Shown: one piece after another, positions 39,329-39,988 of the stretch | Position numbering within the stretch: position 1 is the stretch's first letter | How the letters are laid out: every line of letters starts with the position of its first letter | DNA from: Candidatus Woesearchaeota archaeon | GTDB taxonomy: Archaea; Nanobdellota; Nanobdellia; Pacearchaeales; GW2011-AR1 | Assembly: GCA_964430085.1 (NCBI GenBank) | Contig: CAYSES010000002.1 | Coordinates: 1-41,703 of the forward strand | DNA: 41,703 bases | Direction of reading: 5' to 3' | Made by a program: the position numbers and the translations under genes | The notes under the pieces: model-generated | What the model was told of the DNA's origin: nothing | The model's database searches: none | What the model saw: only the letters and a program-made list of their open reading frames with translations

Positions 39329-39988
39329 ATGGATGAATCAATAAAAGAAGCTTTTCAGAAAGTGAAACAAGATATCAATTCTTTAAAGAATGAGTTAAAT
39401 ATCTTAAAAGAATTTTTATATGAAAATGTAGAAAAATTAGATAAATTAAATAATCAAATTAAAAATAGCTTTTTTAATAAAAATGAAAAACCAACAGATA
39501 TTCTTAAAAAATTGACAGTTCCAACAGATTTTCCAACAGATCAAGCACTTTTTAAGCCTCTAAAAGGGCAAAATTTAACCTTTTCCACTGGAAATCAAGG
39601 GGTTCCAACAGACAGACAGACAGACAGACAGACAGACAGACAGACGCAAAAACCTTCTTTGGCAGATTCTTTAGATATATTAAATTCATTAGATAACTTA
39701 AAAAAAGAAATAAGAAATAAATTCAAAAGAATTACTGATCAAGAATTTCTTATTTTCTCCACAATTTATCAAATGGAAGAAGAAATAGGGCCTCCGGATT
39801 ATAAAATAGTCTCTCAAAAATTAGGGCTTACTGAAAGCTCAATACGTGATTACGTCGGCAAATTACTTAAAAAAGGGGTTCCAATCAACAAAATCCGGTT
39901 TAATAATAAAATCATAAAACTCTCAATTTCGGAAAATTTAAAGAAAATAGCCCCCTTATCTGTTATTTTTCAACTTAGACAATTATAA
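39329..39988 (+). CDS. coiled-coil / PTD-repeat linker / C-terminal HTH protein
   Basis: N-terminal heptads. The linker carries 4 CCAACAGAY (P-T-D) units and TDRQ x3. C-terminal ITDQEFLIF...LGLTESSIRDYVGKLLKKG fits a LuxR/HTH_10-like pattern. Confidence 0.65.
   Translation: MDESIKEAFQKVKQDINSLKNELNILKEFLYENVEKLDKLNNQIKNSFFNKNEKPTDILKKLTVPTDFPTDQALFKPLKGQNLTFSTGNQGVPTDRQTDRQTDRQTQKPSLADSLDILNSLDNLKKEIRNKFKRITDQEFLIFSTIYQMEEEIGPPDYKIVSQKLGLTESSIRDYVGKLLKKGVPINKIRFNNKIIKLSISENLKKIAPLSVIFQLRQL
39608..39645 (+). repeat. (CAGA)9 tetranucleotide microsatellite inside the CDS
   Basis: Nine perfect CAGA units at 39609..39644, counted directly. They encode TDRQTDRQTDRQ. Confidence 0.95.

Follow-up and report, generated by a model that had tools for sequence, protein, structure and literature searches.

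We examined a 41,703-nt stretch of contig CAYSES010000002.1 from a Candidatus Woesearchaeota archaeon (the window; 30% GC), in which a perfect (CAGA)9 tract lies inside a gene for a protein with a coiled coil and a winged helix-turn-helix (wHTH) domain. An earlier reading of the letters alone (the sequence-only reading) had taken this tract as a candidate phase-variable switch. We favor another explanation, which we hold with moderate confidence: the tract is the uninterrupted allele of an ancient 36-nt element of fixed length that stands beside an origin recognition box (ORB) within the gene, and the rare alleles in which the gene is split are by-products. Central to this explanation is a block of about 65 nt, composed of the ORB and the ACAG-periodic segment that follows it, which is constant across the family at the nucleotide level, synonymous sites included. 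The positions of all features in the window are collected in Table 1.

The tract belongs to a block conserved at synonymous sites

Homologues of the protein were numerous (1,907 at E<=1e-3 in one search and 2,689 at E<=1e-20 in another) and came from metagenome-assembled genomes (MAGs) that the Genome Taxonomy Database (GTDB) places in Pacearchaeota, Woesearchaeota and Nanoarchaeota. For the family comparison, we used 39 loci from GTDB species representatives (35-59% amino acid identity) and four loci obtained by exact-protein look-up, and in the relatives we examined flanks of 3 kb. The tract is the uninterrupted form of a 36-nt family segment, (ACA RAC MRA CAG)x3. Every homologue carries the peptide GVPT-[DN][RKQ]QT-[DN][RKQ]QT-... 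in the same place, and at the DNA level no gap interrupts the alignment of 40 species between the Ser codon and the last base of the third unit. A typical segment reads GGG GTT CCA ACA GAC AGA CAG ACA ..., and the commonest states of the 12-nt unit are ACAGACAGACAG and ACAAACCAACAG, with the window having ACAGACAGACAG in all three units.

Codon choice from Ser86 to Asp103 was found to be almost invariant, and it uses codons that these AT-rich genomes do not prefer. The counts were TCC 40/40 at Ser86 (background 0.17), GGA 36/36, GGG 39/40 at Gly91, GTT 37/38, CCA 31/31, ACA 37/37, GAC 38/39 at Asp95, AGA 27/27 and CAG 33/35 at Gln97. Elsewhere in the gene synonymous sites are saturated, such that the invariant residues Ser170, Arg173 and Leu121 are encoded by 6, 6 and 5 different codons, respectively. 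Conservation of the third codon position was 0.83-0.92 over 39589-39640 as compared with about 0.5 in the rest of the gene, and the major-codon fraction rose from 0.60 in 85 conserved columns elsewhere to 0.94 in the 15 columns of the block (Mann-Whitney p = 6.7e-8). With the near-invariant codons and the third-position conservation, we conclude that the block is conserved as nucleic acid. Two trivial sources of this signal were considered. An artefact of the pattern-based search for loci was ruled out by the four loci from the exact-protein look-up, which involved no DNA pattern and have identical codons. Antisense open reading frames (ORFs) at 39552-39689 and 39595-39726 seem an unlikely source of the constraint, the conserved block being much shorter than both.

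The sequence-only reading had also proposed that the tract grew out of a CCAACAGAY (Pro-Thr-Asp) unit. The three further upstream copies of CCAACAGAT that it listed are indeed present, starting at 39491, 39521 and 39533; they have a CCAACAGA core in common with the start of the tract, and ACA and CCA codons are enriched at their columns in the family codon counts. The longest perfect ACAG-type run of the family is that of the window (9.5 units), followed by L023 (8.75), L018 (8.5), L041 (8), L011 (7.75), L028 (7.5) and L019 (7.25), with no other locus above 5.25. Of the 240 full-length proteins from the database, 92 have no consecutive TDRQ unit, 65 have one, 78 have two and none has three. 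The number of 12-nt peptide units is 2, 3 and 4 in 3, 27 and 6 species, respectively, making three the modal number (27/36). Growth from CCAACAGAY is not supported by these run lengths and TDRQ counts, and the segment keeps a fixed 36 nt, with no gap across 40 species and with its synonymous sites conserved. Judged from the aligned sequences, the tract is homologous to the family segment and is not a lineage-specific expansion. Comparison of the tract across relatives, which the sequence-only reading had suggested as a check, revealed interspecies differences only in whole 12-nt steps, that is, three tetranucleotide units, the pattern that it had itself assigned to linker-length polymorphism as opposed to switching.

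The block begins with an ORB-type sequence

The first part of the block is a canonical ORB by its sequence, at which Orc1/Cdc6 would be predicted to bind. The string TTTCCACTGGAAATCAAGGGGT fits the consensus GTTCCAGTGGAAAC-AAA----GGGGG (PMC1868953), and the site also fits the mini-ORB of Pyrococcus, TTCCAGTGGAACT, in which TTCC and GAA are invariant (PMC1904270). We built a position weight matrix (PWM) solely from ORB-like sites in orc1-proximal intergenic regions of other species. A scan of the window returned exactly four matches of at least 24.9 bits, three in the origin (oriC) and one in the gene, and the best of the four was the in-gene site at 32.1 bits; the best score outside these four ORBs was 12.5 bits. 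Over all loci, the highest PWM scores again belonged to oriC sites and in-gene sites, and a strict ORB pattern matched 41 times in 284 kb when 0.03 matches were expected. The in-gene sites and the oriC ORBs also agree in their information content per position (Spearman rho 0.70, p = 1.4e-4), and variation in the in-gene ORB falls on the dyad centre and the spacer and does not follow codon position 3. The site lies 1.43 kb to the right of oriC and is oriented like the right-hand oriC ORB.

A coding ORB has precedent in Thermococcales, where Cdc6/Orc1 was shown to bind a cluster of ORBs within the coding sequence of dp1 (Matsunaga et al. 2007; PMC1904270). In both cases, a conserved ORB lies in a protein gene in the neighborhood of orc1 and oriC. 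The cases differ in that dp1 encodes the small subunit of PolD and carries a cluster of ORBs and mini-ORBs, whereas the gene described here encodes a coiled-coil/wHTH protein in a DPANN lineage and carries a single ORB followed by the 36-nt ACAG-periodic segment. Further, the element here is kept even when orc1 is not within 3 kb, and binding to it is a prediction. Our search of the literature library found nothing on ORBs or origins in DPANN.

In two relatives, a second, inverted ORB is present 3' of the tract (L005:3324-3347, minus strand, 31.4 bits; L020:3265-3288, minus strand, 28.2 bits), which places the tract between two convergent ORBs whose G-strings point toward it.

The ACAG-periodic segment and its host protein

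The ACAG segment follows the G-string of the ORB after TTCCA, and we take this contiguity as a hint that the segment acts as DNA. Two further hints point the same way. Long GT-stretches stand behind some haloarchaeal ORBs (Norais et al.; PMC1868953), and some oriC ORBs in the present clade are followed by TGTGTGT; the other hint is the placement of the tract between convergent ORBs in L005 and L020. Across the 39 loci, the motif ACAGACAGAC matched 131 times inside the target gene and 0 times elsewhere.

To place the encoded peptide in the protein, we used an AlphaFold2 model built on an alignment of 28 sequences. In the model, residues 3-49 form a helix, the stretch from about 50 to 110 is coil predicted at low confidence, and residues 111-218 fold confidently into a wHTH domain. 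Block means of the predicted local distance difference test (pLDDT) were 42-52 over residues 51-110, and the pLDDT was about 90 for 111-218. The residues encoded by the tract (94-106) fall in the low-pLDDT linker, in agreement with the sequence-only reading, which had put TDRQ x3 between a coiled coil and the HTH. In a Foldseek comparison to the PDB, the top matches were all of the MarR family (3nqo, 1s3j and 2nyx; E about 4e-4), and the model gives the C-terminal domain a MarR-like wHTH fold. The protein differs from MarR-family regulators in its long N-terminal helix and its disordered linker of 60 residues, both foreign to the MarR architecture, and in its sequence scores: every Pfam match was below the gathering score, with Fe_dep_repress (16.7 bits against a cut-off of 26) and HTH_24 (14.5 bits against 21.9) the best.

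The synonymous conservation, the match to the ORB and the location of the peptide in a disordered linker together suggest that the sequence is kept for a nucleic-acid reason, probably as DNA. We propose that the ORB and the segment would form a cis-acting nucleic-acid element, most probably acting as DNA, in which a site of the kind bound by Orc1/Cdc6 would be flanked by 12-bp-phased sequence within a gene cluster linked to the origin, and that the encoded linker peptide would be largely a passenger. Because the constrained sequence has a period of four, its uninterrupted alleles would be prone to slipped-strand mispairing. Frame-breaking alleles shorter by one or two units would then be mutational by-products that selection removes and not an exploited switch.

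Length changes in the tract and the split alleles

The sequence-only reading described the tract accurately. Nine perfect CAGA units are present in frame, which Tandem Repeats Finder reports as ACAG x9.5 at 39608-39645 with 100% matches, and they are read as (ACA GAC AGA CAG)x3, giving the peptide TDRQTDRQTDRQ and then T. Our script reproduced both of the frameshifts that had been worked out by hand: loss of one unit (8 units) yields ...DRRKNLLWQIL* with the stop at 39672-39674, and gain of one unit (10 units) yields ...DAKTFFGRFFRYIKFIR* with the stop at 39694-39696. Either product loses the wHTH domain. The frame is kept only with 6, 9 or 12 units, confirming that nothing but three-unit changes preserves it. 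The second-longest tetranucleotide repeat in the window has 3 units, with no other long simple-sequence repeat (SSR) there, and the longest tetranucleotide repeat in 200 first-order Markov simulations had 4 units.

Three independent assemblies of this species span the tract, and all three have 9 units. Besides the window, these are JGI contig Ga0315542_1045854 (4 single-nucleotide polymorphisms [SNPs] in 1.8 kb) and GCA_964515865.1 contig CAZEVE010000093.1 (locus L061; 2 SNPs in 2.1 kb), the latter recovered by exact-protein look-ups of neighboring genes, so that the tract is genuine and not an error of one assembly. A metagenome scan for unit-number variants with a variable-gap pattern recovered only the known JGI contig. 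An exact look-up of the predicted products of 4-13 units gave no match, and was uninformative in that the 9-unit positive control was likewise absent. Frameshifted alleles were found in 0 of the 39 species representatives, six of which have 7-8.75 perfect units, and all 240 full-length database proteins are in frame.

A search with the N-terminal 106 residues recovered short proteins, several of which end just after TDRQTDRQT in tails foreign to the family (P0122, P0123, P0124, P0125, P0127 and P0130). DNA was recovered for two of these candidates, L066 and L067, and in both, two ORFs take the place of the single gene, one for the coiled coil and one, intact, for the wHTH domain. The L066 allele (GCA_012975005.1) reads CCA-(ACAG)7-ATG... 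and its wHTH ORF lies in the +1 frame; adding two units, which gives the canonical 9, or deleting one restores a family protein of 243 residues. The L067 allele (ERZ23498719) is one unit under the canonical TDRQTDRQTDQH arrangement, and one added unit restores a protein of 229 residues. Thus, uninterrupted tracts undergo slippage-type changes unless both alleles are assembly errors, and the claim that a change of this kind would separate the coiled coil from the DNA-binding domain is borne out by the split genes at -2 and -1 units. Such alleles are infrequent, with about six candidates against 78 full-length proteins having at least two TDRQ units among the 240 listed. No same-species on allele of L066 or L067 is present in the database, in which the closest proteins are 74% and 88% identical.

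Several observations on these alleles and on contigs around the tract are recorded here. In L066, the ATG of the wHTH ORF directly follows the tract, and a 14-nt overlap with the stop of the N-terminal ORF (L066:2229-2242) could allow coupled translation of two separate polypeptides. Programmed frameshifting and transcriptional slippage were considered as the origin of the split alleles, and we saw no homopolymer or known slippery site. Other assemblies of this species break between orf89 and the paralogue. Among short-read contigs of this species, the L061 contig ends at window position 39582, in the in-gene ORB and 27 nt before the tract, and the L063 contig starts at about 40401, inside the 12-nt repeat of the paralogue; these ends could reflect repeat-induced graph breaks or population heterogeneity. 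Protein P0134 (163 residues, from a 48.8-kb ENA contig) runs from the family N-terminus through TDRQTDRQT into a GC-rich unrelated tail. Its contig is probably a chimera fused at the repeat during assembly, a warning that assemblies can misbehave at the tract.

Comparison with contingency loci and embedded sites

Among known systems, the tetranucleotide-repeat contingency loci of Haemophilus influenzae and Neisseria (such as mod and lic1; De Bolle et al. 2000, cited in PMC11868660) are close to the tract described here. Like them, the archaeal gene contains a perfect tetranucleotide tract within an ORF, has a repeat unit that is not a multiple of three at a frame-shifting position, is truncated by changes other than multiples of three units, and has relatives with alleles shortened by 1 and 2 units (L067 and L066). 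It departs from them in that the length of the segment is fixed in the family and its sequence is under synonymous constraint, broken alleles are rare, no length variation occurs in three assemblies, and the host gene is a conserved origin-linked regulator and not a surface or restriction-modification gene. Contingency loci have orthologues that vary freely in length with many genomes in the off state, and here length is fixed in 40 species with 0 of 39 off; they also belong to typical gene classes and come as several loci per genome, and here we have one origin-linked wHTH gene in a scan of the window. A literature search found no established SSR phase variation in archaea, and a 2025 review treats archaeal SSR loci as future work (PMC11868660).

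A useful comparison is provided by L042-L056, from MAGs of gut Firmicutes, in which (ACAG)n directly follows the specificity domain of a Type I restriction-modification system (HsdS, PF01420; for example L047:3097-3153 and L048:3097-3192). The unit numbers were 9.5, 12.25, 12.75, 13, 13.25, 14.25, 18.5, 19.25, 20.25, 23.25 and 24. With counts that are not multiples of three, these hsdS tracts look like classical phase-variable loci, and they vary from 9 to 24 units between species whereas the archaeal tract is fixed in length.

In Bacillus subtilis, the centromere site parS lies within the origin-proximal gene spo0J/parB, which encodes a DNA-binding protein. That arrangement resembles the present one in having a cis DNA site in the coding sequence of a DNA-binding-protein gene near the origin, with nucleotide-level conservation imposed on that sequence, and the paralogue described below likewise has operator-like palindromes both within its coding sequence and ahead of it. 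Unlike the parS case, the present one shows no ParB or ParA homology, and the ACAG segment repeats directly and is not palindromic.

Alternative explanations

A constraint on messenger RNA or peptide instead of DNA, exerted on the unstructured CA-rich stretch through an RNA-binding factor, a small RNA or the tuning of translation, or on STGNxGVPTDRQT as a short linear motif of the linker whose codons are set for a translational reason, seems to us rather unlikely. It would agree with the conserved peptide motif, in which G91, V92, P93, T98 and T102 are invariant, with the unusual lack of structure in the RNA (the 108 nt of the window fold worse than shuffled sequences, z = +2.69), and with the confinement of the ACAG motif to the target gene. 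Nevertheless, RNAalifold on 17 species gave a consensus fold of -2.47 kcal/mol with no covariation, which together with the worse-than-shuffled folding led us to reject a conserved RNA structure, and Rfam searched at E up to 5 yielded nothing relevant. Over its first 24 nt the block cannot be told apart from the intergenic oriC ORBs of these genomes, the positions that vary there follow the ORB pattern and not the codon pattern, and the coding repeat of the paralogue has exact intergenic copies. Far less probable is a neutral microsatellite, functionless at any level and produced in a tolerant linker by slippage and concerted homogenization. A disordered linker does tolerate changes in length, and peptide units vary from 2 to 4 among species; however, the unit, register and codons recur across species with synonymous sites saturated elsewhere, the interrupted variant ACAAACCAACAG is shared and itself conserved, the adjoining non-repetitive ORB is equally conserved, and the segment uses GAC and CAG, codons that are not the preferred ones of these AT-rich genomes.

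Genuine phase variation, in which slippage of CAGA reversibly toggles a full-length and a truncated or split protein to the benefit of the population, we consider unlikely, although several findings agree with it: the tract has no imperfect unit and exceeds all others of the family in length, a change of one unit truncates the protein before the wHTH domain, two relatives have natural alleles at -2 and -1 units with both halves intact, further truncated proteins end right after TDRQTDRQT, and some contigs break at or near the tract. The slippage-type alleles of the two relatives stand from the original claim of a switch. Adaptive, reversible switching is not supported, with 9 units in 3/3 assemblies of the species and 39/39 representatives in frame, when neutrality predicts about two thirds out of frame. 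The segment is also ancient and fixed in length across the family, interruptions that stabilize it occur in many lineages, the gene is conserved, syntenic and origin-linked, the window has no comparable repeat, no same-species on/off pair was found, and the broken alleles are rare and could be assembly errors. We infer that their low frequency fits a mutational by-product better than adaptive phase variation, and nothing shows deliberate use as an on/off switch. A version in which an archaeal SSR contingency switch operates within the origin-linked element, such that slippage yields two polypeptides or a form without DNA binding and L066 and L067 represent the off or split phase, is in our estimate quite unlikely. 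An assembly artefact at a low-complexity site is barely credible: contigs tend to break near the tract and one is probably chimeric (P0134), but the count of 9 units recurs in three independent assemblies that differ by SNPs, and orthologous sequence is present in >40 species.

Our preferred explanation, a fixed DNA element beside the ORB, has difficulties of its own. No intergenic copy of the ACAG motif was found in the 39 loci, so its role as DNA is derived only from the synonymous conservation and the contiguity with the ORB, and it is on the role of the ACAG segment that the argument is weakest. In roughly half of the relatives, the 3 kb around the gene contain neither orc1 nor oriC, and a role as an origin accessory is therefore not universal. 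How common off alleles are can be bounded only loosely, as the two protein searches were not equally sensitive. Finally, both halves are intact in L066 and L067, and L066 has an ATG directly after the tract, which a reversible or functional split state would likewise explain.

The paralogue carries embedded palindromes

Downstream of the target gene lies a distant paralogue of the same architecture, which is always convergent with it. Its coding repeat, (NNT GTY CAA ACA)x3, has raised third-position conservation (0.80-0.84) and consists of an array of the palindrome AAACAGSTGTT. In the window, AACAGSTGTT has 8 matches against 0.08 expected, all of them in the array within the paralogue coding sequence and in its upstream region. 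Across the 39 loci, the palindrome occurred 61 times in the coding sequence, 26 times upstream and 3 times elsewhere, compared with 3 expected. As far as sequence can tell, the gene pair demonstrably embeds DNA sites in linker-coding sequence.

Upstream of the paralogue, three relatives have an extra ORB-like site followed by GGGGCTTCGACAC (L005 at about 4445-4481, L011 at about 4720-4754 and L015 at about 4620-4652, all on the minus strand), an arrangement that resembles the in-gene ORB with the GGGGCTTCGACAGAC variant. No ORB-like site was seen upstream of the paralogue in the window (40723-41068). In the closest relative (L057, the P0001 locus), an ORF for a LAGLIDADG homing endonuclease is inserted between the target gene and the paralogue (L057:3716-4258).

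Gene neighborhood and origin

The 344-nt intergenic region 37888-38231 beside orc1/cdc6 is a classical archaeal oriC, in which two minus-strand ORBs and one plus-strand ORB flank an AT-rich stretch of about 80 nt. Beyond orc1 lie the genes for the small and large subunits of PolD, the large subunit being assigned from ORF size and order only. Between oriC and the target gene are a PRC-barrel gene, orf142 and the small wHTH-like orf89. The trio of orf89, target and the oppositely oriented paralogue is present in essentially all 39 homologous loci, and orc1, PRC and orf142 are within 3 kb upstream in about half of them.

Table 1. Features of the window around oriC and the CAGA tract
Feature	Position	Strand	Details
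orc1/cdc6 initiator gene	36673..37887	-	Pfam Cdc6_C 5.5e-25, Cdc6_lid 2.1e-24
oriC ORB, left distal	37893..37916	-	PWM 28.2 bits
oriC ORB, left proximal	37993..38016	-	PWM 30.5 bits
AT-rich candidate unwinding element of oriC	38020..38100		GC 12-13%, TA-rich tandem repeats
oriC ORB, right	38127..38150	+	PWM 24.9 bits; orientation as in-gene ORB
orf89, small wHTH-like gene	39021..39290	+	always directly upstream of target gene
Target gene	39329..39988	+	219 aa; long N-terminal helix (coiled coil), disordered linker, C-terminal MarR-like wHTH
Three upstream CCAACAGAT copies	39491..39541	+	Pro-Thr-Asp
Block under nucleotide-level (synonymous-site) constraint	39580..39645		ORB and ACAG-periodic segment
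In-gene ORB-type element	39582..39605	+	TTTCCACTGGAAATCAAGGGGTTC, coding F-S-T-G-N-Q-G-V-P; TTCC-N3-GGAA dyad and G-string
(CAGA)9 tract	39609..39644	+	TDRQ x3
Paralogue of target gene	40108..40722	-	204 aa; hhalign 88.9%, E 2.4e-6 over HTH
Array of 12-nt operator-like palindrome units	40396..40444	-	GSTGTTCAAACAG, coding xVQT x3; in paralogue coding sequence
Palindrome copies, 3-4	40858..40911	-	AAACAGSTGTTT / CTGTTTAAACAG; intergenic, upstream of paralogue

Implications

A long tetranucleotide repeat in an ORF is, by itself, no evidence for phase variation; in the explanation that we favor, the repeat is a side effect of constraint at the nucleotide level. If the switch were real after all, it would create heterogeneity in origin, segregation or regulatory behavior within DPANN populations, and the natural split alleles at -1 and -2 units are the first concrete place to probe repeat-mediated switching in archaea. 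The palindromes within the coding sequence of the paralogue suggest that DNA coding for the linkers serves this gene pair as a platform on which cis-elements are placed. In the target gene, a block of about 65 nt is written into the sequence that codes for the disordered linker of an origin-linked protein, and it is conserved across a large DPANN lineage. If Orc1/Cdc6 or the neighboring wHTH proteins bind this block, it would offer a handle on origin organization or replication-coupled regulation in uncultivated archaea with reduced genomes.

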